Assembly (NCBI GenBank): GCA_964549945.1
Contig: CAZJXD010000001.1
Span: forward strand, 84,346 to 148,345
Reading direction: 5' to 3'
Source of the DNA: an uncultured Desulfobacteraceae bacterium
GTDB taxonomy: Bacteria; Desulfobacterota; DSM-4660; Desulfatiglandales; B25-G16
Length of the DNA stretch: 64,000 nucleotides
Below the pieces are notes generated by a model. That model worked only from the letters and a program-made list of their open reading frames with translations. It was not told the origin of the DNA and searched no databases. Shown in pieces: positions 37,517 to 61,289 of the stretch. The translations under genes were made by a program, and so were the position numbers. Within the stretch, counting starts at the first letter, position 1, and every line of letters begins with the position of its first letter.

Positions 37517-37518
37517 CC

Positions 37519-38310: not shown

Positions 38311-38331
38311 GGAGAACGTAGCGTTTTGGCT

Positions 38332-38454
38332 GGAGTATTGGAGCATTGGAGAAGTGGAGCAATGGATTAATGTCTGAACGTAACTCTATCGTAGAGAAAT
38401 GTAAAAAAATCCTCTGATCACCATTACTCCAGCACTCCAATTCTCCATTATTCC
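38332..38454 (+). other. Long imperfect hairpin in the etfB-etfA spacer
   Basis: The left arm is ggagtattggagcattggagaagtggagcaatgg (38332-38365). The right arm is ccattactccagcactccaattctccattattcc (38421-38454). They are complementary at 27 of 34 positions by my count. The arms are built from repeated GGAG/CTCC words. Confidence 0.5.
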
Positions 38455-38476
38455 ATAAATCTTAAGGGGATTACCT

Positions 38477-39670: not shown

Positions 39671-39674
39671 GGAG

Positions 39675-40811: not shown

Positions 40812-40835
40812 CGGTGTAAAAAGACGATTGATCAC

Positions 40836-41549
40836 ATGGAAAAAGGACCACTACATACGAACAAAGGGAATTCTACCCTGATAAAGCCCATTAAAAAGGA
40901 GAACCTCGGGAGCCAGGTCTTTGAGCAGATAAAGGGGATGATCCTGAGGGGGGAGATCCCTCCCGAAAGACGCATGATAGAAAGCGAGATTGCCCTCTCA
41001 ATGGGCATTAGCAGAACCCCAGTCAGAGAGGCAGTACATAAGCTTGAGGCAGAAGGCTTCCTCACGCCCCTTCCCAAGGGAGGGTATGTGGTGAGAGGGC
41101 TCACCATCTCCGATATCGAGGACACCTTCGACATCCGGAGTATTCTGGAGAGCTTTGCCGGGTATCTCACCGCCAAGAGGCATGTTGAGGATGAGCTTAT
41201 CGCTCTGGAGGTGAAGATAGATGAGTTTCAGCGATATCTGGACGGAGGTAATCTAAAAAGACTCGCCGTGGTAAATACCGAGTTCCATGAAGCCCTTTAC
41301 GCAATGAGCAAGAGCCCTCGGTTAACAAAGATGATTCATGGTCTCAGGGATGAGATCTACTTTTTAAGAAAGATCATACTCAAATCGGAGGAGATGGCTC
41401 GATTGTCCAATAAGGATCATAGAGAGATAGTAGATGCCATAAAGAAAAGAGAGGCGGAAAAGGTAGAGAGGCAGCTCAAAGAGCATATCTTAAGGGGTAA
41501 GGACTTTGTCCTCAATGAAATCAAGAAGGGAAATGTGAGCATTAGCTAA
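40836..41549 (+). CDS. GntR-family transcriptional regulator, FadR-type (FCD C-terminal domain)
   Basis: The ORF is 237 aa. The winged HTH is SEIALSMGISRTPVREAVHKLEAEGFL. The all-helical C-terminal domain has EFHEALY and DHREIVDAI, which are FCD-like His/Asp ligand positions. Confidence 0.85.
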   Translation: MEKGPLHTNKGNSTLIKPIKKENLGSQVFEQIKGMILRGEIPPERRMIESEIALSMGISRTPVREAVHKLEAEGFLTPLPKGGYVVRGLTISDIEDTFDIRSILESFAGYLTAKRHVEDELIALEVKIDEFQRYLDGGNLKRLAVVNTEFHEALYAMSKSPRLTKMIHGLRDEIYFLRKIILKSEEMARLSNKDHREIVDAIKKREAEKVERQLKEHILRGKDFVLNEIKKGNVSIS

Positions 41550-41582
41550 CCCGCGACTAACAAGGATAGATGTGGAGAAGAC

Positions 41583-41981
41583 ATGCCTGAGAAAAAGATC
41601 AGAATCATGATTGCGAAGCCAGGTCTTGACGGTCATGACAGGGGTGCAAAAGTGATGGCCCATGCCCTGAGGGATGCTGGGATGGAGGTGATATACACCG
41701 GACTGCATCAAACCGTTCCCTCTATAGTGAAGATGGCTATCGAGGAGGATGTCGATGTGATAGGCCTCTCTATCATGTCCGGGGCCCATATTCCAATCGC
41801 GAGAAAGTTGATGGAATTGATCGGGAAAGAGGGCCTGGATAACGTAATGGTTGTCGTGGGAGGGGTAATCCCCACCAAGGATATCCCCACATTAAAGAAG
41901 ATCGGCGTGAAAGGTGTGTTCCCCGGCGGCACCCCGTTCGAGGAATCCATTACATTTATTAAAGAAAATGTTCGCAATTAG
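41583..41981 (+). CDS. B12-binding small subunit of an acyl-CoA (methylmalonyl-CoA-type) mutase
   Basis: The ORF is 132 aa. IMIAKPGLDGHDRGAKV carries the DxHxxG cobalamin His-ligand motif. It also has IGLSIMSGAH. Confidence 0.85.
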   Translation: MPEKKIRIMIAKPGLDGHDRGAKVMAHALRDAGMEVIYTGLHQTVPSIVKMAIEEDVDVIGLSIMSGAHIPIARKLMELIGKEGLDNVMVVVGGVIPTKDIPTLKKIGVKGVFPGGTPFEESITFIKENVRN

Positions 41982-41998
41982 TGGTACCTGGGTTGAGC

Positions 41999-42208
41999 GG
42001 TTCACTGTTCAGGGTTCATAATTGGTTGCCTCATCTTCATACTGGTCTATGTTCATCGTCTTCTAACCCCTGGCCCAGACCTGGTTTAGCAGTCCTTTTC
42101 GTAGAATCCTTGGACGTAGCGTTCAGAAGAACCGTTTAAAGCGCACGTTAGCTCGCACCAGGGCAGGCTTGAACTGTGAACCTCGGAACTTTGAACCTGA
42201 GTATTTAC
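41999..42208. repeat. Structured spacer between the mutase subunit genes; one end resembles the 24568-24794 element TIR
   Basis: The arm ggttcactgttca (41999-42011) pairs with tgaactgtgaacc (42170-42182) at 12 of 13 positions. The reverse complement of 42193-42208, gtaaatactcaggttc, matches the left TIR ggtaattactcaggtag at 13 of 16 positions. Confidence 0.45.
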
Positions 42209-42255
42209 AAAAACTCAAGGAACTCAACAAACACTAGAAACAGGAGTAACCAGGG

Positions 42256-43884
42256 ATGGGAGTAGCAAGATATATAAGGGATGAGAAAGACAGGATAGAA
42301 GACGTGATCCTTCAGTCTGGTATTCACGTCAAGCCCCTTTACGCGGAGGATGACCTCAAAGAAGCGGGGTTTGACTACAGCAAAGATCTCGGGAATCCGG
42401 GAGAATACCCCTTTACGAGGGGGATCCATAGGTTGGGATACAGGAGTCGCGAATGGACTACGAGGCAGTACACGGGCTTCGGCACACCAGGGGAGACCAA
42501 TAAACGCTTCAAGCTGATGATCGGTCAGGGTCAAACTGGGCTGAATGTGGCGTTCGACCTCCCCACCCAGATGGGCTACGACTCGGATGATCCCATTGCG
42601 GAAGGAGAGGTAGGCCGTGTAGGCATGGCAGTGGATTCCCTGAAGGACTTCGAGATCGCCTTCAAGGACATCGCGCTCGATAGGATCGGCACCGGGTTAA
42701 CGATCAATGCCGTGGCCTCCGTCATGCTCGCGATGTATCAGGCCACCGCGGAGAAGTATGGGTTCTCCAAGCAGGGCATAAGCGCCACCCCGCAGAACGA
42801 CATCCTGAAGGAGATTGTAGGTCGAGGTGCGTGGATATTTCCCGTAGAACCGGCCGTGCGCCTGATCGGTGATGTGATCGAGTACTCCATTAAGGAGATG
42901 CCCAAGAACAATCCAGTCAGTGTGTGCGGGTACCACATTAGGGAAGCGGGGGCAACGCCGGTACAGGAGATCGCCTGCGCCATAGGGATTGCGAACGCTT
43001 ATATAGATGAGGTCTTGAAGCGGGGGCTTCACATCGATGACTTTGTTGGCAGGTTTTCCTTCAACCTCGATGTGTTCGGAAACCTATGGGAACAGGTTGC
43101 AAAGTTCAGGGCAGCGAGAAAGCTATGGGCGGAGAATATCAAGGAGAAATACGGGGCAGCCAACGACAGATCGATGTATTTAAGGGGCATCTTCGGTGGG
43201 GGAGGAGGAGGGCTCACCAAGGAACAACCGGAGAATAACATCGCGAGGAGTGCCTACTATGCCCTGGCCGCTGCCTTAAGCGGCGCTCAGACGACCGCCT
43301 TATGCTCCTACGATGAGGCCTATACCATTCCCACGCCTCACTCTGCCCTTATCTCTTTGAGGACATTGCAGATCTTGATGGATGAAGTAGGCCTCAGGGA
43401 CACCGTCGATCCCCTGGCAGGTTCTTATTTCATAGAGACCCTTACCAAACAGATGGAGCAAAAGATCGTCGAGGAGATGGCGAAGATCGATAGATTGGGG
43501 GGAATGGTGAAGGCGATCTCATCAGGCTATATCCAGAAGGAGGTGGCGAGACAGGCCTATGAATTTGAGAAGGGCGTCCAGAGCGGGGAGCTCATAAAGG
43601 TGGGGGTTAACAAATACAGAGGAGGCGAGCAGGGAGAGGTGGAGCTCCATGAATATAGCGATGAGTCAGCAAAGGAGCAGATAAAGGCCCTCAAGGAGTT
43701 AAGGAGGACCCGAGACAACAGGGAGGTTACTCGAACACTTAAGGCATTGGAGAAGGCAGCAAAAGAGGAGAAAAACGTCATGCCCCACCTGGTGGAATGC
43801 TGCAAGGCATATGCCACTGTTGGGGAGATGACGGGGGTATTCAGGGGCATATTTGGGGAATTCGTGGAGCCAAGCATCTTGTAG
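42256..43884 (+). CDS. Acyl-CoA mutase large (catalytic, TIM-barrel) subunit
   Basis: The ORF is 542 aa with a CAGGAG RBS. It contains PGEYPFTRGIHRLGYRSREWTTRQYTGFGTPGETNKRFKLMIGQGQTGLNVAFDLPTQMGYDSDDP, a methylmalonyl-CoA mutase family signature. Confidence 0.85.
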   Translation: MGVARYIRDEKDRIEDVILQSGIHVKPLYAEDDLKEAGFDYSKDLGNPGEYPFTRGIHRLGYRSREWTTRQYTGFGTPGETNKRFKLMIGQGQTGLNVAFDLPTQMGYDSDDPIAEGEVGRVGMAVDSLKDFEIAFKDIALDRIGTGLTINAVASVMLAMYQATAEKYGFSKQGISATPQNDILKEIVGRGAWIFPVEPAVRLIGDVIEYSIKEMPKNNPVSVCGYHIREAGATPVQEIACAIGIANAYIDEVLKRGLHIDDFVGRFSFNLDVFGNLWEQVAKFRAARKLWAENIKEKYGAANDRSMYLRGIFGGGGGGLTKEQPENNIARSAYYALAAALSGAQTTALCSYDEAYTIPTPHSALISLRTLQILMDEVGLRDTVDPLAGSYFIETLTKQMEQKIVEEMAKIDRLGGMVKAISSGYIQKEVARQAYEFEKGVQSGELIKVGVNKYRGGEQGEVELHEYSDESAKEQIKALKELRRTRDNREVTRTLKALEKAAKEEKNVMPHLVECCKAYATVGEMTGVFRGIFGEFVEPSIL

Positions 43885-43915
43885 GGAAAGAAACTACTCA
43901 ATATTAACCAAAAAA

Positions 43916-45442
43916 ATGAATATTGGCGATTGGATAAGGAAATGGAATGATCTCTCACCTTTGAAGGTGGCAGTCATCGATAATGGTCATGAGTTCACCT
44001 ATAGGGAGCTTAATCGAAGGTGCAACAAATTGGCAAATTTCCTCCTCCAAAGAGGCATAAGCAAGGGAGAGAGGGTAGGAGTCCTTCTATATAACCGCCA
44101 CGAGTATCTAGAGATCTATTTTGCCTTGGCAAAGATAGGAGCTGTATTGGTCCCTCTAAACTGGAGAATGGCTCCCCTTGAAATAGCATACATCTTACAG
44201 GATTGCGGGGCTACCTATCTATTCTTTGGCGAGGAGTTCCTCGATACCGTACTTTACATCAGGGATAGCGTTGAAACAGTTATACGTTATATTTCCCTAG
44301 CCCAGGAGGAAATTCCATGGGCAGAGAATTATAGCAAGGCAAAGGAATGCTCTTCAAATGAGCCTATCGGCTTTATTGAACCCGATCTAGAGGATCCCCA
44401 TCTCATCTTATATACCTCAGGCACCACAGGTTTTCCGAAGGGTGCCGTCCTTACCAATAGAAAGACATTTTTTAACGCCCTCAATGCCAACATATTCTAT
44501 CGGCTCACCCCTGAAGATATATTTTTGGTTTCTCGGCCTTTGTTCCACTCAGGTGGCCTTTTGGTTGATTCGACTCCTGCCCTTTATAGGGGTGCTATGG
44601 TAATCTACAAAAGGCGTTTTAGCCCCCATGAGTACCTGGAGACCATTGAAAAATACCAGGTCACCATTATGGAAACATCAGCTACTTTCTTAAACTTCGT
44701 GCTCAAGGAATGTGATTTAAGCGCATACAACCTAAATTCATTAAAGTCATATTATACCGGCGGTGAAAGGGTTTCTACAGCGTTACTCAAAGAATACCAC
44801 GAGCGAGGCATTCCCCTAAGCCAGATATTCGGAATGACGGAAACATCGATAGTGACGTGGCTCTCAATCGATGATGCTGTGAGGAAACGTGGCTCTGTGG
44901 GCAAGCCTGTGCTCCATGGTGAGGTAAGGATCGTGAATCGTGAGATGCAGCCAGTGAGCCCTGGGGAGACCGGAGAAGTTGTAGTGAGAGGTCCCATCTT
45001 AATGTTGGGTTATTGGAATAAGCCAGAGGTTACGAGAGAGGTGGTAAAAAATGGCTGGTTTCACACGGGAGACCTCGCCACAATTGACGATGAAGGCTTT
45101 ATCTATATTATTGATCGTGAAAAGGATATGTTTATCAGCGGAGGAGAAAATGTCTATCCGGCCGAGATCGAGAAGCTCCTCCTCACACACCCCAAGATAC
45201 TGGAAGTGGCTGTTTATGGAGTTCCTGATGAAAAGTGGGGCGAGGTTGGCAAGGCATCAATAATCTTAAAAGAAAAAGTAATGAGTACCTCGGAGGTTGT
45301 GGAGTTTTTATGTGGCAAGATCGGCAAGTTCAAGATCCCGAAGTATGTTGAATTTGTTGATGATCTGCCAAGAACGGCAACAGGAAAGATCAAGAAATAC
45401 CTGTTGACCCAAAGATCTAAGAAGGAAATACGCTTGGCGTGA
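43916..45442 (+). CDS. AMP-forming acyl-CoA synthetase/ligase (ANL superfamily)
   Basis: The Met at 43916 (MNIGDWIRKW...) avoids overlap with the mutase gene. It contains ILYTSGTTGFPKGAVLTN, YYTGGERV, GWFHTGDLATIDDEGFIYIIDREKDMFISGGENVYPAEIE and PRTATGKIKK. Confidence 0.85.
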   Translation: MNIGDWIRKWNDLSPLKVAVIDNGHEFTYRELNRRCNKLANFLLQRGISKGERVGVLLYNRHEYLEIYFALAKIGAVLVPLNWRMAPLEIAYILQDCGATYLFFGEEFLDTVLYIRDSVETVIRYISLAQEEIPWAENYSKAKECSSNEPIGFIEPDLEDPHLILYTSGTTGFPKGAVLTNRKTFFNALNANIFYRLTPEDIFLVSRPLFHSGGLLVDSTPALYRGAMVIYKRRFSPHEYLETIEKYQVTIMETSATFLNFVLKECDLSAYNLNSLKSYYTGGERVSTALLKEYHERGIPLSQIFGMTETSIVTWLSIDDAVRKRGSVGKPVLHGEVRIVNREMQPVSPGETGEVVVRGPILMLGYWNKPEVTREVVKNGWFHTGDLATIDDEGFIYIIDREKDMFISGGENVYPAEIEKLLLTHPKILEVAVYGVPDEKWGEVGKASIILKEKVMSTSEVVEFLCGKIGKFKIPKYVEFVDDLPRTATGKIKKYLLTQRSKKEIRLA

Positions 45443-45530
45443 ATAGAGGAAAATAGTGAGAATTGAAATATATATGGAAGCTTTTACGAGACGTAAAATA
45501 TTTTCACTCATTTAAGAAGAGACTAGAAAA

Positions 45531-46052
45531 ATGGAACGTTCGGCTAATAAGATTGTTGCTGATTTATTATTCTTACCAGAAAAGGCAGAATTACTTTATA
45601 ATGACATACGTTATATCTTGATAAGACCGGATACATTGATCGGGTTTCAAAAGCTTGTCGAAGAAGCACTTGGTCCGATAGCCTCAGATCTGATGTTCAA
45701 AGCAGCTTGCAATATTGGATCATTAATAGGCAGAAAGTTCATAGAGGGTCCGGCGGGTTCACAAAGGGATATGATTATCTCAATGCTCGATGCTGCTAAT
45801 GAATTGGGATGGGCTAAGATGTGCCTGAAAGACAATAAGGCTTTCCCTAGTCTGATAGTGTTGGAGGCATTCAATTCTGCCTTTGCGTCGGCTTATTCGC
45901 AAAGCTCGACTCCTGTCTGTCATCTGATAAGGGGAATCTTTAATGGAGCCCTATCACAGATGATTGGACCAATTACAGAAAATAGAGAGGTCGAATGCTT
46001 AGCAATGGGGTTTCCGAAATGCATTTTTGAGTTTAGGATGCAGAAAAGATAA
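45531..46052 (+). CDS. V4R (4-vinyl reductase-type) small-molecule-binding domain protein
   Basis: The ORF is 173 aa. It contains IRYILIRPDTLIGF, VCHLIRGIFNGALSQ and EVECLAMGFPKCIFEF, matching the V4R pattern seen in XylR/DmpR sensor domains and BchJ. The gene is AT-rich; a hand count of one 60-nt line gave 38% GC. Confidence 0.65.
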   Translation: MERSANKIVADLLFLPEKAELLYNDIRYILIRPDTLIGFQKLVEEALGPIASDLMFKAACNIGSLIGRKFIEGPAGSQRDMIISMLDAANELGWAKMCLKDNKAFPSLIVLEAFNSAFASAYSQSSTPVCHLIRGIFNGALSQMIGPITENREVECLAMGFPKCIFEFRMQKR

Positions 46053-46345
46053 AAGGAAGAGCGACTTAAAGGCTCTCCTGCTCTTTTTATGCCATGAAAT
46101 ACTCTTTGAGCAAAGCAGCTAGTAGAGTGCTGCCTCATTTGAGTCCGATCCAGGCCATGTAATCTATAACCGCGTTGGATAGCAGATCTCTAAGATATGA
46201 GCTGAGATTCAATAAAAAAACCACCATAGGTTAAATACAAAAATCCATTCTTTAATAAACCAGGCGCGAATGTAGATCCCGCAGGGGATCACTGCTCTCA
46301 CATCGCAAAGCGCAAGAACATTGCTGGCCTACGTTACCGCTTTCC

Positions 46346-46570
46346 TCATGTGATGCCGAATTCTAATCGAATCTCTAAAGGGGGGATGACCTCAATGGCC
46401 AATTGTAAGCAGTCTACCTCGCAGGCACCACAATAGTGGCATTCCCCAGGGTAATTCACTATAGGCAGATTCTTCTCTTCATCCCAGCCGAAGACATCTG
46501 AGGGACAATTGTCATAACAAGCTTTGCAGCTATTGCAGTATTCATAATCTATTTGAGGTCCATAGTCCAT
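46346..46570 (-). CDS. 2x[4Fe-4S] ferredoxin (AprB-N-terminal-like), partner of the FAD protein
   Basis: The ORF is 74 aa. The motifs are CNSCKACYDNCP and CHYCGACEVDC. It lies 16 nt downstream of 46587..48266. Confidence 0.75.
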   Translation of the reverse strand: MDYGPQIDYEYCNSCKACYDNCPSDVFGWDEEKNLPIVNYPGECHYCGACEVDCLQLAIEVIPPLEIRLEFGIT

Positions 46571-48484
46571 GTCTGTTATCCTCCTTTCAGTTCCATGGTG
46601 CTCCTACATTGGAGTTGAACTGGCCGTTCTCTTGCCAGACCAGCACTGCCTTTCGCCAGTGCTCATCGTCTCGATTAGGATAATCCACCCTATAATGCCA
46701 GGGCACTAGGCGACTTTCAGTACGGATGAGAGCAGCCCGAGCATGAATCTCTCCCACGGTGATAATATTTTGCACCTCCACAGCTCGCATTAGTTCATGA
46801 GGGTTATCTACCTGAAGCCGGGGAACGTATTTATCTTGTACATTAGCCAATTGCTGTAAAGCATAAGTAAGCTTAGAGTCATGCTTCTCGAAGCCCACAT
46901 ACTCAGTCACCAGTCGGCGGACTGTATCCTCCAGATGCAGTGGCTTGAGACCCTTGACGCGGTTGAGTGGGGCCAATACCCGCTCCTTCTCTTGGAGCAC
47001 CTGTTCACAGTCTACTACCGGCTCAGGTCTTTCCTGTGCCTCCTTGGCTGCATTCGGTCCCTCCACATAGCCCCATACCAGAGCACCTGTAGCTCCAGAC
47101 ATCATGGAGCCGCCAATGACATCACCAGCTGCGTACAGGCCAGGGAGTGAAGTCTCACCCGTCTCATTTATTACCACTCCGCCCATACTGCGAACGATGC
47201 CGTCCATCCAATTACGAGGTTCGGTAGGGACATTTTGCAAACTGCCGATTTTGTTGGCCAGATGTAGCCCGTAGGGGAGCTCATTAGCTCCCACGAAACT
47301 CCAACATGCGTGGGCTTCCTCATCGGCAAAGGTAGCCATGTCAAGGCCCAACCTCTCTCTAGCTTGAAATAATATAGCTGCAAGCGTGAGGACAGGATCG
47401 GTGGGGTTTTCCTCAGCGAGATCTCCCAACTTGTCCAGGACTCTCTCACCTTTCTGGTTTCTGAGTTCATACCAAGGCATGACGAACATAGGCAGGCCCC
47501 TTGGCAAGCCTTTTGTGGCGGGATGGATATAGACAAATTCCATGTTGGCCAGTTTTGCACCAGCCCGGTAGGCTGCTGCTGTACCGTCTCCACAGTTCTG
47601 TGGGTCCTGATAGAGGATGAACAAATTGCTGGGGAAGGAGCCATAGGGGTGCCAGTACAAGCGATGGGCGCCGCCGCTAGCCAGAATGGTGGCCTTGGCT
47701 TTAACCACCACGAACTTACCGGTGCGGGTGTTAAGCCCCATGGCACCCACTACGGCACCATCCTGGATCAATAGGTTAGTCAACATAGTGCGTTGGATGG
47801 TTTGCACTCCCCGCCGGCGAACTTCGGCTGCAAGCTTAATCTTTAAATCGGCCCCCCGGTAGAAGATGAAATCATGCACGCCATGTAGCCGGCCCGATTG
47901 CATTTTGTAGGCACCATCTTCCTCCTTGACCTTGACCCCAATCTTCTCGATCTCGGCTACCACCTTCAATGCGTTTCGGGTGACTACCAGGTTCAGCTTA
48001 GGATCCACTAGCCCTTCGGTGCCGACGCCCCGTCGTATAGCCAGCTCTTCCGGTGTTATACCATTCAGCTTTGGATGAGCAATATTCGGGAAGTGGTCCA
48101 TGCCAGTACCAGCGTCGCCGCTGCGGCGAATGGCTGCTTTTTCCATGATAGCCACCTCTACGCCGTATTCCCGGGCTTTGATGGCAGCCATGCAGCCGGA
48201 TAGTCCACCACCGATGATAAGCACATCCTTACTGATAACTTCATCGGCTATGTCATTCAGCTTCATGATGACCTCCCTCGGGCTGCTTATCTATGAGCTC
48301 TGTGATGTTGGTGGCCACAGAGATGGCGTACTTGGCGTAAAACTTCTCCCAGTCGGGCACAGGTCGTCGGTAACGCCACAGGATGAAGCAGCTCTCGCTA
48401 CAGAAGATATGGGGCTTTCCCCGCACCACCTTTTTGACCTCTCCGCCCCCAAATGCTCGCTTGCAGAATTCACACTTCTTGCTC
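46473..48484. repeat. Direct repeat copy 1 (2,012 bp, identical to 49523-51534)
   Basis: The offset is exactly 3,050 bp. Every stretch I compared base by base is identical. All embedded six-frame ORFs (559, 191, 89, 83 and 60 aa) are identical in both copies. Confidence 0.9.
46587..48266 (-). CDS. FAD-dependent oxidoreductase, fumarate reductase/succinate dehydrogenase flavoprotein-like (AprA-like), copy 1
   Basis: The ORF is 559 aa. It contains VLIIGGGLSGCMAAIKAREYG (FAD), ILASGGAHRLY and LPGLYAAGDVIGG. A capping and helical C-terminal domain follow. Confidence 0.85.
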   Translation of the reverse strand: MKLNDIADEVISKDVLIIGGGLSGCMAAIKAREYGVEVAIMEKAAIRRSGDAGTGMDHFPNIAHPKLNGITPEELAIRRGVGTEGLVDPKLNLVVTRNALKVVAEIEKIGVKVKEEDGAYKMQSGRLHGVHDFIFYRGADLKIKLAAEVRRRGVQTIQRTMLTNLLIQDGAVVGAMGLNTRTGKFVVVKAKATILASGGAHRLYWHPYGSFPSNLFILYQDPQNCGDGTAAAYRAGAKLANMEFVYIHPATKGLPRGLPMFVMPWYELRNQKGERVLDKLGDLAEENPTDPVLTLAAILFQARERLGLDMATFADEEAHACWSFVGANELPYGLHLANKIGSLQNVPTEPRNWMDGIVRSMGGVVINETGETSLPGLYAAGDVIGGSMMSGATGALVWGYVEGPNAAKEAQERPEPVVDCEQVLQEKERVLAPLNRVKGLKPLHLEDTVRRLVTEYVGFEKHDSKLTYALQQLANVQDKYVPRLQVDNPHELMRAVEVQNIITVGEIHARAALIRTESRLVPWHYRVDYPNRDDEHWRKAVLVWQENGQFNSNVGAPWN

Positions 48485-48486
48485 GT
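48253..48486 (-). pseudogene. Zinc-ribbon (TRASH-like) gene copy lacking its start codon
   Basis: This is the same frame as 51303..51536, but the repeat ends inside the start codon. ATG AGC AAG AAG in copy 2 reads ACG AGC AAG AAG here, preceded by an in-frame TAA six codons upstream. There is no other in-frame Met, and the GGAGGGAG RBS is absent. Confidence 0.5.
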
Positions 48487-48598
48487 GCTCTCTTGCTCTT
48501 AAGAATTGATACTGATCAAAATAATTTCCTGTACCTGCCAAGTGTTATTGCATTTTATCGAAAAAATCCACCTATGAATTTATTGTTCTGAATGTTTT

Positions 48599-49270
48599 CT
48601 ATTGATGTGGATTTTTAAAAACAACAGCCTTTATTGGTGTTGGATTATAAGCATTGCAAGGACTGCGGTCTTGTGGACAATTAGAAATAGCAACTAGGCA
48701 GTCCATGTTTGCCTGAAAATCAATGTAATCACCAGCTTCACTAAATGGTTCGCGAATTGCCCAAACACCATTAGAGTTCTCGGTCAGGTTCATGAATATC
48801 GAAGCACAACAATCTTCATTGAAGTCTTTTTTCGTAAGGCCATATGGTGCTAAGGCCATTGCAAAGTTATCTTGACAATTGCGCATTCCTTTAATACCAA
48901 ACCTAGCATAATTTATATCTTCACTACAGTAACCTCCAGTCCAGCCACCAGTAGAACCCCGCGCACCAACTTTATCTTCGATTATGGTCAACATATTATT
49001 ACCTTTTTGTGAATATACACTGTGCCCCTTCGTAATGTGCAAAGTCTTATTAAACAAACACGTTATGACACAAGATGACCGCTCCCCTAAGTCGTTAAGG
49101 TTAAAAAAGATTACATCTATGACTTGCTGGCCTTCGATGTCAATTAGTCGAAAAATCTGCCTATTCTTTATAATTAAACTCAGATATTCTCGAGCTGGTA
49201 CTATAATTTCACGAATTATAGTCATTTTGATGTTATTATCGTTTGGATTCGCTACTATTTTTCTCCCCAA
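48599..49270 (-). CDS. DUF1989-like (urea-carboxylase-associated family) protein
   Basis: The ORF is 223 aa. VPAREYLSLIIKNRQIFRLIDIEGQQVIDVIFF resembles the N-terminal signature I recall for DUF1989/YcgI proteins. The gene is strongly AT-rich; two 60-nt lines hand-counted at 32% and 43% GC. Confidence 0.6.
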   Translation of the reverse strand: MGRKIVANPNDNNIKMTIIREIIVPAREYLSLIIKNRQIFRLIDIEGQQVIDVIFFNLNDLGERSSCVITCLFNKTLHITKGHSVYSQKGNNMLTIIEDKVGARGSTGGWTGGYCSEDINYARFGIKGMRNCQDNFAMALAPYGLTKKDFNEDCCASIFMNLTENSNGVWAIREPFSEAGDYIDFQANMDCLVAISNCPQDRSPCNAYNPTPIKAVVFKNPHQ

Positions 49271-49500
49271 TTATGACCCTATTCTTGATATACTAAAATA
49301 TGGAGTCTTGAATTACATAGGGCTTATTATTAATGTTAGCACTTTTAGTATTGCACAAGGGGCTCAATAGCCTGTCTCATATCCGAGGGCATATTGCATA
49401 GATCCAAATTGATCTTTCCCCTTCTTCAGACGATGCTTTATTTCTTCCTGGAGCAGACGTTATTCCTAAAATGCATAGAGCTTCATGTCTTTGATCTGCA

Positions 49501-49620
49501 CTATTTTCCTTGAGGCTTTACATTCTCTTCATCCCAGCCGAAGACATCTGAGGGACAATTGTCATAACAAGCTTTGCAGCTATTGCAGTATTCATAATCT
49601 ATTTGAGGTCCATAGTCCAT
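49501..49620 (-). pseudogene. Truncated ferredoxin copy (first cluster motif only)
   Basis: The repeat edge at 49523 cuts the ferredoxin gene after codon 32. My translation is MDYGPQIDYEYCNSCKACYDNCPSDVFGWDEE + NVKPQGK*. At 39 aa it is below the track cutoff. Confidence 0.6.
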
Positions 49621-51534
49621 GTCTGTTATCCTCCTTTCAGTTCCATGGTGCTCCTACATTGGAGTTGAACTGGCCGTTCTCTTGCCAGACCAGCACTGCC
49701 TTTCGCCAGTGCTCATCGTCTCGATTAGGATAATCCACCCTATAATGCCAGGGCACTAGGCGACTTTCAGTACGGATGAGAGCAGCCCGAGCATGAATCT
49801 CTCCCACGGTGATAATATTTTGCACCTCCACAGCTCGCATTAGTTCATGAGGGTTATCTACCTGAAGCCGGGGAACGTATTTATCTTGTACATTAGCCAA
49901 TTGCTGTAAAGCATAAGTAAGCTTAGAGTCATGCTTCTCGAAGCCCACATACTCAGTCACCAGTCGGCGGACTGTATCCTCCAGATGCAGTGGCTTGAGA
50001 CCCTTGACGCGGTTGAGTGGGGCCAATACCCGCTCCTTCTCTTGGAGCACCTGTTCACAGTCTACTACCGGCTCAGGTCTTTCCTGTGCCTCCTTGGCTG
50101 CATTCGGTCCCTCCACATAGCCCCATACCAGAGCACCTGTAGCTCCAGACATCATGGAGCCGCCAATGACATCACCAGCTGCGTACAGGCCAGGGAGTGA
50201 AGTCTCACCCGTCTCATTTATTACCACTCCGCCCATACTGCGAACGATGCCGTCCATCCAATTACGAGGTTCGGTAGGGACATTTTGCAAACTGCCGATT
50301 TTGTTGGCCAGATGTAGCCCGTAGGGGAGCTCATTAGCTCCCACGAAACTCCAACATGCGTGGGCTTCCTCATCGGCAAAGGTAGCCATGTCAAGGCCCA
50401 ACCTCTCTCTAGCTTGAAATAATATAGCTGCAAGCGTGAGGACAGGATCGGTGGGGTTTTCCTCAGCGAGATCTCCCAACTTGTCCAGGACTCTCTCACC
50501 TTTCTGGTTTCTGAGTTCATACCAAGGCATGACGAACATAGGCAGGCCCCTTGGCAAGCCTTTTGTGGCGGGATGGATATAGACAAATTCCATGTTGGCC
50601 AGTTTTGCACCAGCCCGGTAGGCTGCTGCTGTACCGTCTCCACAGTTCTGTGGGTCCTGATAGAGGATGAACAAATTGCTGGGGAAGGAGCCATAGGGGT
50701 GCCAGTACAAGCGATGGGCGCCGCCGCTAGCCAGAATGGTGGCCTTGGCTTTAACCACCACGAACTTACCGGTGCGGGTGTTAAGCCCCATGGCACCCAC
50801 TACGGCACCATCCTGGATCAATAGGTTAGTCAACATAGTGCGTTGGATGGTTTGCACTCCCCGCCGGCGAACTTCGGCTGCAAGCTTAATCTTTAAATCG
50901 GCCCCCCGGTAGAAGATGAAATCATGCACGCCATGTAGCCGGCCCGATTGCATTTTGTAGGCACCATCTTCCTCCTTGACCTTGACCCCAATCTTCTCGA
51001 TCTCGGCTACCACCTTCAATGCGTTTCGGGTGACTACCAGGTTCAGCTTAGGATCCACTAGCCCTTCGGTGCCGACGCCCCGTCGTATAGCCAGCTCTTC
51101 CGGTGTTATACCATTCAGCTTTGGATGAGCAATATTCGGGAAGTGGTCCATGCCAGTACCAGCGTCGCCGCTGCGGCGAATGGCTGCTTTTTCCATGATA
51201 GCCACCTCTACGCCGTATTCCCGGGCTTTGATGGCAGCCATGCAGCCGGATAGTCCACCACCGATGATAAGCACATCCTTACTGATAACTTCATCGGCTA
51301 TGTCATTCAGCTTCATGATGACCTCCCTCGGGCTGCTTATCTATGAGCTCTGTGATGTTGGTGGCCACAGAGATGGCGTACTTGGCGTAAAACTTCTCCC
51401 AGTCGGGCACAGGTCGTCGGTAACGCCACAGGATGAAGCAGCTCTCGCTACAGAAGATATGGGGCTTTCCCCGCACCACCTTTTTGACCTCTCCGCCCCC
51501 AAATGCTCGCTTGCAGAATTCACACTTCTTGCTC
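49523..51534. repeat. Direct repeat copy 2 (2,012 bp)
   Basis: See copy 1. The unique spacer between the copies is 48485-49522 (1,038 bp). Confidence 0.9.
49637..51316 (-). CDS. FAD-dependent oxidoreductase (AprA/SdhA-like), copy 2
   Basis: The 559-aa translation is identical to 46587..48266. Confidence 0.85.
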   Translation of the reverse strand: MKLNDIADEVISKDVLIIGGGLSGCMAAIKAREYGVEVAIMEKAAIRRSGDAGTGMDHFPNIAHPKLNGITPEELAIRRGVGTEGLVDPKLNLVVTRNALKVVAEIEKIGVKVKEEDGAYKMQSGRLHGVHDFIFYRGADLKIKLAAEVRRRGVQTIQRTMLTNLLIQDGAVVGAMGLNTRTGKFVVVKAKATILASGGAHRLYWHPYGSFPSNLFILYQDPQNCGDGTAAAYRAGAKLANMEFVYIHPATKGLPRGLPMFVMPWYELRNQKGERVLDKLGDLAEENPTDPVLTLAAILFQARERLGLDMATFADEEAHACWSFVGANELPYGLHLANKIGSLQNVPTEPRNWMDGIVRSMGGVVINETGETSLPGLYAAGDVIGGSMMSGATGALVWGYVEGPNAAKEAQERPEPVVDCEQVLQEKERVLAPLNRVKGLKPLHLEDTVRRLVTEYVGFEKHDSKLTYALQQLANVQDKYVPRLQVDNPHELMRAVEVQNIITVGEIHARAALIRTESRLVPWHYRVDYPNRDDEHWRKAVLVWQENGQFNSNVGAPWN

Positions 51535-51536
51535 AT
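51303..51536 (-). CDS. Small zinc-ribbon protein with TRASH-like C-x2-C-x20-C-x3-C pattern
   Basis: I prefer the Met at 51536 (MSKKCEFCKRAFGGGEVKKVVRGKPHIFCSESCF...), which is preceded by GGTGGAGGGAGAGATT. The stop overlaps the FAD gene start by 14 nt. Confidence 0.6.
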   Translation of the reverse strand: MSKKCEFCKRAFGGGEVKKVVRGKPHIFCSESCFILWRYRRPVPDWEKFYAKYAISVATNITELIDKQPEGGHHEAE

Positions 51537-51667
51537 AATCTCTCCCTCCACCGATTGATAACGAATAAATCAATCGCCTCTAACCGCCCCGTTCTTGTCC
51601 AAGTTCTAGATTCCCTCCTTAACTCTCTCGACTTTCAAGTAATAAAAGCAGCCTCATCATAAATCCA

Positions 51668-53617
51668 CTAATTGCTTGATTGCCTTACAACATAACGATT
51701 GGACTGAAAGCTTAGCCCTTCGAGGACTACTGCCATCACAATCGCCATACCCCCTGCAATCTTCATCATACCGATAGGGAAAAAAACCGCAAACCCGCCA
51801 ACAAGAAACAAAAGTCTCCCCAGCCAATTTACCCTTTTTATTAAGTAGCCTTCTAAACCAATGCCTATGCTTATCGCACCTATAATTGAAAATGCTACTG
51901 CCAGTAATATCTCTAATAGCGACCCCTTAAGAAGTAAAGCAGGATTATATACAAAGGCGAAAGGTACAATGAAAACCAAGATACCCAGGCGCATGGCCTG
52001 AAATCCAGTTCCCATCATGGGACCACCAGCAATTATAGCCGCCATCCAGGCTCCTTCACAAACCGGTGGAGTAATAACGTGTGTTATTGCAAAGTAGAAG
52101 ATGAACAAGTGAGCAGCCATCATAGGGATTCCGGCCTTTGTCAAAGCGGGAGCTACAAGAATAGCCATCATTAGGTAGGCGACCATACTGGGTAATCCCA
52201 TTCCGAATATGTAACAAGCTGCCCCTGTTAATACGAGTAGAAAGAAAATGTTGCCATGGCTCAACTTAAGAAGCATGCTGCTAAGAGTCAGTGGCAGGCC
52301 CGTAACCTCTACGCATCCAATTAGAATACCGATAGCAGCGGCAATAGGGAAAATCCTAGTTAGCAGCCTTATTGTCTGGTAAAAAACCTCCCCTATAGTC
52401 TTCAGATTCCATCGGCTTTCTTTCCTAAAGATGGCGACTAATAACAAAGCCCCTATTGCGTATAGACAACAAGTTATCGGCGAGTACCTCAGTACTGCTA
52501 GAAAATATATTAATACTGCCATCGGCACCAGGAAATGCCAGCCCGACTTCAATACTTTTACCATAGATGGTAGTTCTTCGCGGGATAGACCTATCATTCC
52601 TCTTTTTTTCGCCTGCAAATGTGCCTGCACGAATAAAGCGATATAATATAGCATTCCAGGCAAAAATGCAGCTATGGCTATATCAATATAAGGAACTTGC
52701 ATAAAGTCAGCCATAATGAAAGCGGTTGTCCCCATAATAGGTGGCATTAGCATGCCACCGGTGGAAGCCGCAGTCTCAATAGCACCAGCATATACAGGTT
52801 CGTAACCTATTCTCTTCATCAATGGAATAGTAATTACACCTGTGGTGACTATGTTTGACGTGGGAGAGCCTGAAATCATCCCAAAAAGGCCGCTACCGAT
52901 TACTGCTACCTTGGCCGGTCCCCCTGCGAAGCGGCCAGCTAAGGCGAGCGATGAGTCCAGAAAGAATGTGCCTGCTCCTAAGACACTGATAAACATGCCA
53001 AACGTAAGAAAAATAAACGCATATGTTGCTATTACTTTCATGATTAGGCTAAACATGCCCGTGGGGAATAACCAAGAATGGGCGACTATCTCTGACCAGC
53101 TGCTACGAGGCCCCCAGAAGATTCCCGGAAATAAATCAGTGTATAGGCAATAAAATATGGCTATCAATACTATAATAATAACAGGCCAGCCCATTGTACG
53201 CCGTGTCGCCTCCAAGACGGCAATTATTGTCATTGTTCCCAATACTAACTCAAGCAATGTAGGACCGAAGCTGGTGAGAATTATCTCCGTCGCATTTATC
53301 GAAATATAGATAGTACCTACCAGGCTTACCCCGATAAATATGAAATCGTGCCACTGTAACCTATTGTCCTTTGTCCACTTTTTTCTTGCCGGGAAAAATA
53401 AGAAAGAGAAAATGAGCATCATGCCCAGAACAATTGGCAGATGCTCCTCCTCATTTATAAATATCCATTTAGTCTCTAGAAATCCAAGAAGATACAATAG
53501 ATTGTATAAGCAAAATAAAATGGCCCCTATTCTAACTACTTTACCAAATGTCCCCTTAAATTCCCTCAGCTGGCTTTCGTCCTCAGTCTTTATCGAACTT
53601 ATATCAGTGTCTTTCAT
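51668..53617 (-). CDS. TAXI-type TRAP transporter fused permease (4TM/12TM)
   Basis: The ORF is 649 aa with about 16-18 hydrophobic helices. It lies directly downstream of a TAXI-like solute receptor. Confidence 0.8.
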   Translation of the reverse strand: MKDTDISSIKTEDESQLREFKGTFGKVVRIGAILFCLYNLLYLLGFLETKWIFINEEEHLPIVLGMMLIFSFLFFPARKKWTKDNRLQWHDFIFIGVSLVGTIYISINATEIILTSFGPTLLELVLGTMTIIAVLEATRRTMGWPVIIIVLIAIFYCLYTDLFPGIFWGPRSSWSEIVAHSWLFPTGMFSLIMKVIATYAFIFLTFGMFISVLGAGTFFLDSSLALAGRFAGGPAKVAVIGSGLFGMISGSPTSNIVTTGVITIPLMKRIGYEPVYAGAIETAASTGGMLMPPIMGTTAFIMADFMQVPYIDIAIAAFLPGMLYYIALFVQAHLQAKKRGMIGLSREELPSMVKVLKSGWHFLVPMAVLIYFLAVLRYSPITCCLYAIGALLLVAIFRKESRWNLKTIGEVFYQTIRLLTRIFPIAAAIGILIGCVEVTGLPLTLSSMLLKLSHGNIFFLLVLTGAACYIFGMGLPSMVAYLMMAILVAPALTKAGIPMMAAHLFIFYFAITHVITPPVCEGAWMAAIIAGGPMMGTGFQAMRLGILVFIVPFAFVYNPALLLKGSLLEILLAVAFSIIGAISIGIGLEGYLIKRVNWLGRLLFLVGGFAVFFPIGMMKIAGGMAIVMAVVLEGLSFQSNRYVVRQSSN

Positions 53618-53648
53618 AACTCTTTAGCATCATATGTTTGACTAAACT

Positions 53649-54668
53649 TTATCGCTTCTCCTTAGCCAAGAGTGTCCGTTGAAGATCATCCAATTCTTTC
53701 GTCCAAATACCCTTTTCCTTGTAATATTTGATAGCCCCAGCATGGTATGCGACCACCGAGGGGAATTTAAGTGCTCTCTTCAGATTGAACTCACCACATG
53801 TGCGGTGAATTTCAGCAAGTTCTTGTGCGTGGTCATATACTGCTTTAGTTATGGCATAGGCTAAGTCTTCGCTAGTATAAGGATTGGTAAATAGATAAAC
53901 GGTTGTGGCAGCAACGGGGACATCTTCGGGTATGCCATATAGACCCTTCGGTGCTATGTCTGAAACAAGATTGATAAGTGGCTCTCGCTCATTCATATAG
54001 TCTACAACTTCTGGCGGAACTGGGATAACAACAATGCCCTTAGCCGCCTTCAGTTTCTCGCAATGACCTCCAATCGATCCACCGTAGGCATCTATCTTAC
54101 CTTCTATCATACGGTCAGCTGTTGCCGAGAGGCCTCCCCGCTCAAAAGCCACCACCTTGTCTGTTATGCCGTAATAGTCCAACATAAGTCTGTTTTTCAA
54201 AGTAGAGCTTTGTGATACCCCGGAAATATAAGCTACTTTCTTTCCCACTAAGTCCTTTATCGTCTTTATGCCAGTCTCTGGAGTAGTAAAAAAGCAGGCA
54301 TACCCGCTATTGCCTGCGCCTAGTACACGCAGCGGTCTCGGTCCCTTCTCTTTAAGCTTCTCAACCCCATGAGTACAACTATAAATCCAGTATAGATTGT
54401 CTAGGGCTAAATCTAACTTTCCTTCGGCTACACCGTCGAGAATTGGTAAAGCCCCGGGCATGGCTCTTAAAATTGCCTTGTTATCTAAGTGCCTATCGAT
54501 AACAACTGTAAGTCCGGCTGCAGTTGCATACAAAGGACCGCCCATCGTTTCGACACCAAAAAAGATCACCTTTTCTTTTTTTGCCGGTGCACCAGCTACG
54601 GGCATTACGCCGACTGCTAGTACCAACACGGCAAGTAGTGCTGCAATTAGCTTCAATAATTTACTCAT
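53649..54668 (-). CDS. TAXI-family TRAP solute-binding protein
   Basis: The ORF is 339 aa with a signal peptide MSKLLKLIAALLAVLVLAVGVMPVAGA. It contains GGPLYATAAGL and GAGNSGY. The size and periplasmic-binding-fold pattern are consistent with TAXI receptors. Confidence 0.75.
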   Translation of the reverse strand: MSKLLKLIAALLAVLVLAVGVMPVAGAPAKKEKVIFFGVETMGGPLYATAAGLTVVIDRHLDNKAILRAMPGALPILDGVAEGKLDLALDNLYWIYSCTHGVEKLKEKGPRPLRVLGAGNSGYACFFTTPETGIKTIKDLVGKKVAYISGVSQSSTLKNRLMLDYYGITDKVVAFERGGLSATADRMIEGKIDAYGGSIGGHCEKLKAAKGIVVIPVPPEVVDYMNEREPLINLVSDIAPKGLYGIPEDVPVAATTVYLFTNPYTSEDLAYAITKAVYDHAQELAEIHRTCGEFNLKRALKFPSVVAYHAGAIKYYKEKGIWTKELDDLQRTLLAKEKR

Positions 54669-54736
54669 AATAACCTCCTTAGATTAAAGATTTATAATTG
54701 ACCTTCAAATTTAAAGGCCAGCATTTATTTTTACTA

Positions 54737-55141
54737 CTATTTAATACGTAAGGTAGCGCTAGAGAGGATGTTATAATCGTTATCGGCAACACTAATAGAG
54801 TACATCCCAGGGCTGAATTTCATAAGGATCAGCGAGGTTGAGAATTCTCCATGGTCACTGACCTCTGGAATTGGGTTGCAAGAAAGTGTCTCATCAATAG
54901 CCAATCCGTTTTGTGTAACAACCATTATCTTTATTTCTTTGCCTATAGATAGACCAGAGCATGTTATGATGGTCTTTGCTTCTCTTCCTGCTATCACTTC
55001 CGCTGGGGAAAGTGTCAATATTGGGGATACTGTTGATTTTTCTGGTTGCACTGCGCACCCCACTATCGCAAGAATTGAGATAAGCAACAGAGAAATCAAA
55101 GAAATAACAATTACAATACAATTCTTCATAATGCCCTCCAA
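54737..55141 (-). CDS. Small lipoprotein, unknown function
   Basis: The ORF is 134 aa with a lipobox LAIVGC. It is beta-rich and AT-rich, and is the first gene after the 55249-55284 promoter/operator. Confidence 0.6.
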   Translation of the reverse strand: MEGIMKNCIVIVISLISLLLISILAIVGCAVQPEKSTVSPILTLSPAEVIAGREAKTIITCSGLSIGKEIKIMVVTQNGLAIDETLSCNPIPEVSDHGEFSTSLILMKFSPGMYSISVADNDYNILSSATLRIK

Positions 55142-55248
55142 TAATTTTTATTAGTAAAGACTATCAAATAATGGGAAATTAAAAATTGGGTTAAAAATGG
55201 TACGAAATGAGAATTTGTTAATAGTTGAAGTTTAGAATGGAGATAATC

Positions 55249-55284
55249 TGTATACTGTATACCGTACTCATTTATTGTTGTCAA
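55249..55284 (-). promoter_or_regulatory. Minus-strand promoter TTGACA-17-TATACA overlapped by third operator copy
   Basis: On the minus strand the sequence reads TTGACAacaataaatgagtacggTATACAgtataca. The -35 is at 55279-55284, the -10 at 55256-55261, and the palindrome tgtatactgtatac(c) at 55249-55263 (14 of 15 positions). Confidence 0.5.
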
Positions 55285-55589
55285 TAAAAAATTGATTCAA
55301 AAAATTAAGATCTATTAAGCGTAGTTTAATTCATAAATGAAAATTTGTTATTGTTATGTTGACATATAATGTCCAGTGAGTTTACACTAACACCTCATAA
55401 AATCCTCAGATGACGGTAGTGCCGTTACCTTCGAAAACACATAGGTCCGAACGAGCACAGCATGCCCGCCATGCACACACACCGACAAGACACGCATCCC
55501 CAGTTATACTGAAGAGAAAGGAGGTGAAAGCCTAATAGCCAAAGGCTCAGCATTCATTTACCCCTAACCAAAGACGAGGAGGTAGAGAG

Positions 55590-56612
55590 ATGAAAAAGCA
55601 AGGCATTTCAAAAGTAATAGGGCTTGTAATGACATTGTTCATTTTGAGCCTTTTTCCCGTTCCATCTGCCGCGGCGCCCATAACGCTTAGCTACGCGAAC
55701 TTTCCCCCTGCACCTACTTTTCCCTGTGTGCAAATGGAGCGGTGGAAAGAGGAGGTAGTGAAGAGGACCGGCGGCAAGGTCGCGATAAACACCTATCCCG
55801 GCAGCACCCTTCTCGACGCGAAGAACATGATGGATGGCGTAATTGCAGGAACGGCTGATATCGGGTGCCTGTGCATGGCCTATCAACCAGGCAGGTTTAT
55901 CGTGACAAACGCTACTGCCTTACCCCTTGGCTTCCCCAACGCCACGGTAGCCAGCCTCACCCTCTGGGATATCTACCGGAAACACAATCCCGATGAATTC
56001 GCAAAGGTAAAGGTCCTCACCATGTTCACCTGTGCGCCCGCAAATATCTATGCAAAGAAACCGGTAAAGAACCTTGAAGACCTCAAGGGACTGGAGCTCA
56101 GGGCTTCCGGAGGAGTTGCTCAGGTATTGGAGGCATTGGGAGCCGCTCCTGTGGGAATGCCCCAGTCGGAATGTCCCGAGGCCCTACAAAAAGGGGTGGT
56201 CAAGGGAGCGGTGTCGTCGCTTGAAACCCTTATGGATTTCAAGTACGCGGAGATGTGCAGGTATGTGACGATCTTTAACGGTCCGGTGTATCCCTTTGCC
56301 GTGGTCATGAATATGGACAAGTGGAACTCATTGCCAAAGGATGTGCAAGATGTGATGGATGGGTTGGGGACGGAGCAGGCCTGGTGGACTGGTAACTACA
56401 TGGACAAGCATGTGGATGAGTCCGTCGAGTGGTCGAAGAAGAACTATAACATCGAGATCACCGACCTGACCACGAGGGAGATGATAAGGTGGAATAGGTT
56501 GATGAAGCCCCTGATCGATAAATGGATTACCGATGCCGAGGCCAAGGGATTACCGGCCAGGACCATAATAAAAGACATCAGGATAGCGAGGGACTATCAT
56601 TCCCGATTCTAA
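55590..56612 (+). CDS. dctP: TRAP transporter substrate-binding protein (DctP family)
   Basis: The ORF is 340 aa with a GAGGAGG RBS and a signal peptide. It contains LSYANFPPAPTFPCVQMERWKEEV and LRASGG. It is followed by Q and M permease genes. Confidence 0.85.
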   Translation: MKKQGISKVIGLVMTLFILSLFPVPSAAAPITLSYANFPPAPTFPCVQMERWKEEVVKRTGGKVAINTYPGSTLLDAKNMMDGVIAGTADIGCLCMAYQPGRFIVTNATALPLGFPNATVASLTLWDIYRKHNPDEFAKVKVLTMFTCAPANIYAKKPVKNLEDLKGLELRASGGVAQVLEALGAAPVGMPQSECPEALQKGVVKGAVSSLETLMDFKYAEMCRYVTIFNGPVYPFAVVMNMDKWNSLPKDVQDVMDGLGTEQAWWTGNYMDKHVDESVEWSKKNYNIEITDLTTREMIRWNRLMKPLIDKWITDAEAKGLPARTIIKDIRIARDYHSRF

Positions 56613-56693
56613 GAGGGCGAGGGAATAACGGATTTTGGGTGGTATCCCAAAGTCCGTTTATTCCCTTAAAGCCAAGGAGGTTTGACGGCGAAT

Positions 56694-57182
56694 ATGGAGT
56701 TCCTGGATAAAGCGAGCAGAATACTAAATCAGGTGTTTGTCTGGATAGCCGGTGTATTTTTGGTGGGAATGATCCTGCTCGCCTGCTCGAATATCTTTTT
56801 GAGGATTGTGTGGCTCCCGGTAAAGGGCACCTTTGAGCTTATGGGGTTTTTCGGCGCAATTGTCACCGCCTTTGCCCTTGGCTACACACAGATCAAGAGG
56901 GGCCATATAGGAATAGATATAGTGGTGACTCAATTCTCGGCAACAGCCCAGAGAATCCTCAGCGGCATCAATTACCTCATCTGCACGGTATTCTTTTCTA
57001 TTGCGGGCTGGCAGATAGCTAAGTGGGCCACAACCCTCTGGAAAACAGGAGAAGTCACCGAAACGCTGAGGATTATTTTCTACCCTTTCACCTATGGCGT
57101 TGCCCTGGGTTGTTTCGTTCTTGCCCTCGTATTGTTAGTTGACCTTTTAAGAGTGCTCATTGAAGGCGAAGGAGCCTCATAG
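56694..57182 (+). CDS. dctQ: TRAP transporter small permease (DctQ family)
   Basis: AAGGAGG at 56674-56680 favours the ATG at 56694 over the track start at 56682. The protein has 4 TM helices. Confidence 0.8.
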   Translation: MEFLDKASRILNQVFVWIAGVFLVGMILLACSNIFLRIVWLPVKGTFELMGFFGAIVTAFALGYTQIKRGHIGIDIVVTQFSATAQRILSGINYLICTVFFSIAGWQIAKWATTLWKTGEVTETLRIIFYPFTYGVALGCFVLALVLLVDLLRVLIEGEGAS

Positions 57183-58487: not shown

Positions 58488-58617
58488 GCAAAGATATTTG
58501 AAATTCGAAACTGGAAACTTGAGAGAGGGGGAACCCAAAGGTGCTTTTTTCAGATTCGAGTTTCTTTCAACGACTGCCTTCGCAAACCAGTCAAATAAAA
58601 AAGGAGTGAAAGGTACT

Positions 58618-59913: not shown

Positions 59914-59952
59914 GGTTTAGAAATTCCACGCAGTGACGGATGAGGGGTATTT

Positions 59953-60816: not shown

Positions 60817-61280
60817 AAAAGGCCATACGCTTTTTCCTTAACGGTCGCGAGGTTTCAACGGAGGTTGAGGCGCATAAGATGCTGCTGGAGGTGTTGAGGG
60901 ATAATTTCCAGCTTACTGGGGCCAAGGATGGCTGCGGTCTGGGCGAATGCGGTGCATGCACGGTACTGGTGGATGGCCTGAGCGTACCTTCATGCCTCTA
61001 TCCGGCCTTTGAGGTTGAGGGGAAGTCGGTCACCACCATCGAGGGATTGGTAGGGGAGGGAAACGAGCTCCACCCTATTCAGAAGGCCTTTGTGGAACGT
61101 GGAGGAATTCAGTGCGGGTTTTGCACGCCGGGGATGATCATGTCTGCAAAGGCGCTTTTGGATGAGAATCCCGACCCCACCGAGGAGGAGATCAAGCGAG
61201 GGATAGCCGGCAATCTATGCCGTTGTACGGGGTACGTGCAGATCATCGACTCCATCGCAGAGGCCGCCAAAAAACTCTAA
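60813..61280 (+). CDS. [2Fe-2S] small subunit of molybdopterin hydroxylase (CoxS-like)
   Basis: The ORF is 155 aa. It contains [16 protein letters not shown] and [12 protein letters not shown]...NLCRCTGY. Confidence 0.9.
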
Positions 61281-61289
61281 GGAGATAAC

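Follow-up and report, generated by a model that had tools for sequence, protein, structure and literature searches.

A probable recent duplication-insertion sets a foreign DUF1989 gene between two identical copies of a flavoprotein segment in an operon of an uncultured Desulfobacteraceae bacterium

We analysed a 64,000-bp stretch of DNA (hereafter the window; positions count from its first letter) of the 173,657-bp contig CAZJXD010000001.1, belonging to the metagenome-derived assembly GCA_964549945.1 of an uncultured Desulfobacteraceae bacterium, in which one segment of a TRAP-transporter operon, carrying the gene of an FAD flavoprotein, stands twice around an AT-rich gene for a DUF1989 protein. 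This arrangement is probably a real and recent duplication-insertion inside a catabolic operon. Direct comparison of positions 46473–48484 with 49523–51534, which lie 3,050 bp apart, found no mismatch over 2,012 bp, so the exact direct repeat proposed in an earlier, sequence-only reading of this DNA was reproduced base for base, together with the identity of the 559-aa protein encoded in both copies (46587–48266 and 49637–51316, minus strand). An exact match over 2 kb has no chance origin. The two copies of the repeat (R) were in direct order and their ends were sharp, with the next base already differing at either side, and R was the sole long repeat within the window. The copies did not abut at one join point: they were separated by an unrelated 1,038-bp spacer (S, 48485–49522) with a GC content of 37.0%, compared to 52.7% in R and 50.4% across the window, and with DUF1989 as its only gene, just as the same reading had described it. 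The presence of these 1,038 bp between the copies makes the structure a duplication-insertion and not a simple tandem duplication. The claim that the FAD gene was duplicated was correct as far as it went; the duplication exceeds that gene, and R ends inside two small genes flanking it, one for a zinc-finger protein (zf) and one for a ferredoxin (Fd).

The gene order along the minus strand was TAXI, TRAP permease, zf, FAD, a 39-aa open reading frame (ORF), DUF1989, a zf remnant, FAD, Fd and a hairpin. The features are listed here in this direction, with R and S first:

49523–51534, minus strand: repeat copy 2 (R), the upstream copy by transcription; takes in zf starting with the G of the ATG, all of the FAD gene and codons 1–33 of Fd
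48485–49522, minus strand: spacer S, unique, 1,038 bp, 37% GC; relatives match only its DUF1989 coding part
46473–48484, minus strand: repeat copy 1 (R), the downstream copy, identical to copy 2
53649–54668, minus strand: TAXI-family TRAP solute-binding protein, gene 1 of the operon
51668–53617, minus strand: TRAP fused permease, upstream in the same operon, in the right flank (Y)
51303–51536, minus strand: zf, intact small zinc-finger gene, 77 aa, Cys-rich (C-x2-C...C-x3-C), with a weak zf-FCS match
49637–51316, minus strand: FAD flavoprotein copy 2, 559 aa, FAD_binding_2/Succ_DH_flav_C
49501–49620, minus strand: truncated Fd ORF, 39 aa, Fd residues 1–32 followed by NVKPQGK and a stop codon out of the spacer
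48599–49270, minus strand: DUF1989 gene, 223 aa, TTG start as called, Pfam E=3e-40
48253–48484, minus strand: start-less zf remnant, its sole callable ORF being 58 aa from a GTG at 48429, without the first Cys pair
46587–48266, minus strand: FAD flavoprotein copy 1, 559 aa, identical to copy 2
46346–46570, minus strand: Fd, intact 2x[4Fe-4S] ferredoxin, 74 aa, straddling the joint between copy 1 and the left flank
46265–46283, minus strand: terminator-like hairpin, 63 nt past the stop codon of the intact Fd

The positions of the four joints relative to these genes distinguished the old from the new ones. R opened at the G of the zf ATG, with the GGAGG ribosome-binding site and the preceding "AT" contributed by the unique right flank, and closed within codon 33 of Fd. 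As a result, the upstream copy carried an intact zf and a truncated Fd, and the downstream copy carried a start-less zf, with ACG in place of ATG and an in-frame TAA five codons upstream, followed by an Fd that was completed by the left flank. The outer joints were thus ancestral, with intact genes across them, and the inner joints were new and cut genes. Since genes were intact at both outer joints, each operon gene kept one intact copy, zf being supplied by the upstream copy, Fd by the downstream copy and FAD by both; in total, zf and Fd are each present once in intact form, FAD twice and DUF1989 once.

Relatives of the duplicated module and of the inserted gene pointed to the same ancestral state. 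The nearest relatives of the FAD protein (79%, 73% and 57% identity) were encoded next to zf and Fd in all cases, with zf proteins 38–73% and ferredoxins 59–82% identical to those of the window, and they carried one zf-FAD-Fd set each; none of the relatives examined had DUF1989 near the module, and no close FAD relative was present among GTDB representative genomes. The relatives of DUF1989 (62–78% identity) followed a nitroreductase gene, a DctPQM transporter or a thiamine pyrophosphate (TPP)-enzyme gene, and none of them stood beside zf, FAD or Fd. A conserved module without DUF1989, combined with unrelated contexts for DUF1989, therefore identifies right flank–R–left flank as the ancestral order, and R–S and S–R are the derived, gene-cutting joints. 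We also followed synteny through the methylmalonyl-CoA mutase gene (42256–43884), whose product was 86–88% identical to versions in metagenome-assembled genomes (MAGs) of Desulfatiglandales and Desulfobacteraceae, in line with a probable host among the Thermodesulfobacteriota; zf, FAD, Fd or TRAP genes were found at 0 of 80 such loci in related Thermodesulfobacteriota.

Gene conversion, a mobile element and microhomology were tested (ALTERNATIVES). Active gene conversion, which the sequence-only reading had offered as one source of the identical copies, would imply two old paralogous zf-FAD-Fd modules around DUF1989 that were homogenised over 2,012 bp. A long and perfectly identical tract is indeed its typical product, and one would then expect diverged paralogous sequence to continue outside the tract. 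Instead, the similarity ended abruptly at both R ends, beyond which the local alignment scores did not exceed the means of shuffled sequences. The Fd remnant ran on for 7 codons of S and lacked a diverged second half, the zf remnant was preceded by no diverged start but just by the in-frame TAA, and the relatives hold a single module. We consequently hold homogenised paralogues to be very unlikely. Candidate traces of a decayed paralogue past the R ends that had been picked by eye (TATCAAT, GAGAG and GGCNATTGAG) were at chance level against shuffles and were discarded.

The spacer differed from its surroundings in composition. DUF1989 had a GC content at third codon positions (GC3) of 0.326, the lowest among the 41 window ORFs of at least 150 aa (mean 0.586, SD 0.088). 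Its nearest relatives were 71–78% identical and lay in unrelated contexts, and the likeness to S was confined to the coding region. The foreign base composition of S would also suit an origin of S, or of R and S together, as a mobile element (a transposon, an integron cassette, an integrative element, or a phage or plasmid fragment) that caused the duplication on insertion, as would the location of several DUF1989 homologues at contig ends in other assemblies. However, no transposase, integrase or Rep gene was found, the Pfam and PHROGs searches returning FAD, DUF1989, zf and Fd only, with no PHROGs match for DUF1989 or zf; S had neither terminal inverted or direct repeats nor a target-site duplication; and plasmid, phage and IMG/VR collections contained no match. 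Transposition is not known to produce a target duplication of anything near 2 kb. An element of this kind is thus a scarcely credible cause of the duplication.

Among the closest homologues of DUF1989 (loci L011, L012 and L017–L019), several lay at or beside contig ends in other assemblies. The contigs of two NCBI MAGs both ended 413 bp past the homologue, and many homologues are known from contigs of 1–1.6 kb only. These contig ends could reflect repeats or strain variation beside the gene, or merely low coverage.

To place the four joints in raw-read data, we used Logan contigs, which are assembled at k=31 with once-seen k-mers dropped and with all 31-mers distinct (PMC12424806). Each 31-mer is held once, and therefore Logan contigs overlap by 30 nt at branch nodes. 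Three contigs of run SRR14802572 matched the window at 100%:

L009 (SRR14802572): window 35531–46502, the left flank and 30 nt into R
L001 (SRR14802572, reverse complement): window 48455–49552, S plus 30 nt of R at either side
L008 (SRR14802572, reverse complement): window 51505–63145, the right flank and 30 nt into R

The contig ends at 46502, 48455, 49552 and 51505 were all located exactly 30 nt (k−1) inside R, so that every entry to and every exit from the repeat ended in the manner of a collapsed repeat loop. The read graph thus contains R as one node, into which paths lead from the left flank and from S, and out of which they lead toward S and toward the right flank. All four joints (flank–repeat, repeat–spacer, spacer–repeat and repeat–flank) were branch points in this independent k=31 assembly, and the read graph and the window agreed on the boundaries of R to the base. 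A further contig, L010 from run SRR14802573 (1,960 bp), started within S, crossed the S–R joint and continued 962 nt into R. Taken together, the read k-mers of two runs show that both new joints are real DNA, and an assembly chimera, in which the new joints would lack read support, did not agree with these data. The same result set aside the proposal that two strain haplotypes had been stitched in series: the four joints were present in the SRR14802572 graph, with S–R also crossed in SRR14802573, and molecules with one linear R each cannot hold both S joints. Searches for the same structure or for an un-duplicated allele elsewhere found the FAD and Fd proteins on no other contig, and the 30-mer at the R end was absent from JGI metagenome contigs and from IMG/VR.

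L010 differed from the window at one base, which changed AAG to TAG at DUF1989 codon 214. This substitution, at about position 852 of L010 (window ~48631), would cost DUF1989 its last 10 residues. It hints at a strain variant or population variation in SRR14802573, or at a read error if that run is noisy.

The node structure of R also fits an assembly-graph loop that was printed as a duplication. Under this explanation, the dominant genome would have one copy (left flank–R–right flank, L–R–Y) or more than two, the R–S and S–R joints would reside on a 3,050-bp circle or in a minority sub-population, and the assembler would have chosen L–R–S–R–Y as the only path using each edge once. In the independent k=31 graph, R indeed behaved as one collapsed node that has two ways in and two ways out, and walking such a node twice gives zero divergence automatically. 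R is also much longer than a typical short-read insert, and phasing it would take more than short reads. In addition, the SRR14802573 contig passed the start of R without a branch to the right flank, although low coverage explains this gap as well, both ends of that contig being at arbitrary positions. Against the loop, the repeat ends coincided to the base with branch points of the graph, so the assembler invented no sequence, and the 3,050-bp circle would consist of gene fragments and DUF1989 without a replication or recombination gene. Such a circle could be maintained only through excision from R–S–R, and therefore the integrated form exists or existed; for this reason we ranked the integrated form first, and regard the loop as a possible but rather unlikely source of the printed duplication.

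These considerations also limited what the identity of the copies can tell. Zero divergence had been taken to mean a very recent duplication, gene conversion or an artefact. A recent duplication remains the best reading of the structure, and copies without differences are what it predicts; the identity itself is weaker evidence than was thought, because an assembler walking a collapsed node twice prints identical copies, and it thus adds no independent evidence.

Several observations weigh against a real duplication-insertion. The loop formed by L→R, R→S, S→R and R→Y is equally compatible with L–R–S–R–Y and with L–R–Y accompanied by a 3,050-bp circle, and it fits equally well a mixture with the ancestral allele or more than one turn around the loop. 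The intact 559-aa FAD product was on no Logan contig, though S and both flanks were present; R must accordingly contain one break or more in that graph. This break could be due to real copies that differ, to co-existing strains or to chance, and in view of flank contigs that were unbroken for 11.6 and 21.7 kb, a break inside a 1.7-kb gene was mildly unexpected. The native or source locus of S was not found among DUF1989 relatives at 71–78% identity. Finally, the microhomology was weak: the 8-nt GAGCAAGA, 6 nt upstream of the S–R joint, equals the first 8 nt of R (p ~0.007, uncorrected, with six comparisons), and none was found at the R–S joint. The match near the joint may have been left by the joining event or may be due to chance. 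Near GAGCAAGA, the motif GAGCA occurred three times in 24 nt (window 48485–48514, minus strand, just upstream of copy 1).

The favoured duplication-insertion would have started from an ancestral operon with the order TAXI–TRAP permease–zf–FAD–Fd–terminator. The internal 2,012-bp R would have been doubled in direct order, with the foreign, AT-rich S of 1,038 bp placed at the new joint, so that one event would create two new joints. Two routes could lead to this product. By the first, R would be duplicated in tandem, and foreign DNA would be caught at the join point through illegitimate recombination or template switching. By the second, a circular molecule consisting of R and S would integrate through a Campbell-type single crossover. 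By either route, every function of the operon would survive the entry of S.

Transcription of DUF1989 probably occurs by read-through from the operon promoter, because no sigma-70-like promoter was found in S upstream of the gene and no minus-strand terminator precedes that of the intact Fd; the hairpin at 46265–46283 was the only minus-strand terminator-like site between 46000 and 52000. Rfam and tRNA scans of the window gave no matches. Direct repeats in bacterial duplications are subject to loss or amplification by recombination between the copies. RecA-dependent recombination between the 2-kb copies would here delete S and one R precisely and restore the ancestral operon, and the same recombination could instead amplify the 3,050-bp unit. 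A structure with repeats so prone to recombination should be of recent origin, be maintained by selection, or vary within the population.

The gene-dosage switch suggested by the sequence-only reading amounts to no more than this: loss and gain are generic consequences of 2-kb direct repeats, and no sign of a programmed switch was found. A stronger version would take the R+S unit as a naturally amplifying cassette, in which a promoter-less, horizontally acquired DUF1989 was captured in an active TRAP-linked oxidoreductase operon and is present in 0, 1 or several units within the population, as a reversible switch of dosage or presence under selection. We consider such a cassette improbable.

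The region 43850–55500, which includes an AMP-ligase, a V4R protein, the TAXI/TRAP genes and DUF1989, had GC3 values of 0.33–0.49 compared to ~0.6 in the rest of the window, and the FAD genes (GC3 0.56) stood out within it; in composition, this stretch resembles a mosaic or an island. Divergently from the operon, on the plus strand, positions 55590–63683 encode a DctPQM TRAP transporter, a phenylacetate-CoA-ligase-like AMP-binding protein and a three-subunit molybdenum hydroxylase (FAD_binding_5/CO_deh_flav_C, Fer2 and MoCoBD), and this set of genes resembles an aromatic-acid catabolic cluster of the 4-hydroxybenzoyl-CoA-reductase-like kind. Farther away on the minus strand, a 1,555-aa ORF (6387–11054) with a right-handed beta-helix, InlB B-repeat-like and TSP3 repeats probably encodes a surface protein. 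It contains internal tandem repeats of ~141 nt at 8975–9783, and a GTC/GTG-rich tract with 9-nt periodicity (11143–11280) is located just upstream of it, in a FecR-domain ORF (11106–12050).

If real, the structure would be a natural case of a foreign gene fitted into a working operon with no resident gene destroyed, in which the duplication would provide a spare of the interrupted segment and the event would be fully reversible via repeat recombination. It would then be modestly interesting for the study of how operons evolve and how genes are amplified in uncultured anaerobes. For practical purposes, a word of caution carries more weight. Perfect kilobase repeats in metagenome-derived contigs are graph loops, and neither their copy number nor their identity should be given a biological reading without read-level checks.

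The FAD protein resembles the flavoprotein subunits of APS/PAPS reductase and of succinate dehydrogenase/fumarate reductase; its best solved relatives were the alpha subunit of PAPS reductase (8a8o, E=4e-49) and AprA (1jnr), and its NCBIfam scores were all far under the curated cut-offs (best 324 versus 587). As in AprAB and in pairs of the dissimilatory PAPS-reductase type, the gene for the FAD protein is followed by that for a small 2x[4Fe-4S] ferredoxin. Unlike AprAB, the pair is neighboured here by TRAP transporters, and in relatives by genes of the racemase/amidohydrolase type, with no sulfate-reduction genes. Judged from sequence, FAD and Fd are best described as a putative AprAB-like flavoprotein/ferredoxin oxidoreductase linked to a TAXI-TRAP transporter. 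The DUF1989 protein is similar to UAAP1/2, the urea-amidolyase-associated proteins, in having a clear Pfam DUF1989 domain (E=3e-40) and UAAP2 as its top NCBIfam match, with 3oru, 3di4 and a trimethylamine N-oxide (TMAO)-demethylase domain as solved relatives. The UAAP1/2 pair forms carboxyguanidine deiminase. In contrast to that pair, the DUF1989 studied here is a lone gene with a score below the cut-off (163 versus 285) and with no partner subunit or carboxylase gene nearby.

Among rearrangements, a close parallel is provided by spontaneous tandem duplication and amplification units, which were studied in bacteria such as Salmonella and Acinetobacter and are used in the TDAH method (PMC11111574). 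Shared features are the direct identical copies, the ancestral flanks that were kept, a joint that cuts genes, one intact version of each gene, and the expectation that homologous recombination between the repeats will remove or amplify the structure. In a simple tandem duplication, the copies meet at a single new joint without a spacer; the present structure has two new joints, between which lie 1,038 bp of foreign DNA with a complete gene. Also unlike duplications observed experimentally, the event was deduced from a metagenome-derived contig, and the microhomology was weak. The topology is that of a Campbell-type merodiploid, with an upstream copy that lacks its 3′ end, a foreign insert and a downstream copy that lacks its 5′ end, and, as in Campbell-type integration, recombination between the copies gives precise and reversible excision. 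A Campbell-type vector differs from S, which carries DUF1989 alone with no replication, integration or transfer function, and neither a free circular form nor a donor of R+S was found. A collapsed repeat in a de Bruijn graph was matched by the k=31 contigs breaking k−1 nt inside R at all four ends; such a loop is a description of the data and no artefact in itself, and both loop joints were supported by read k-mers of two runs. The event is of a known kind and does not constitute a new system.

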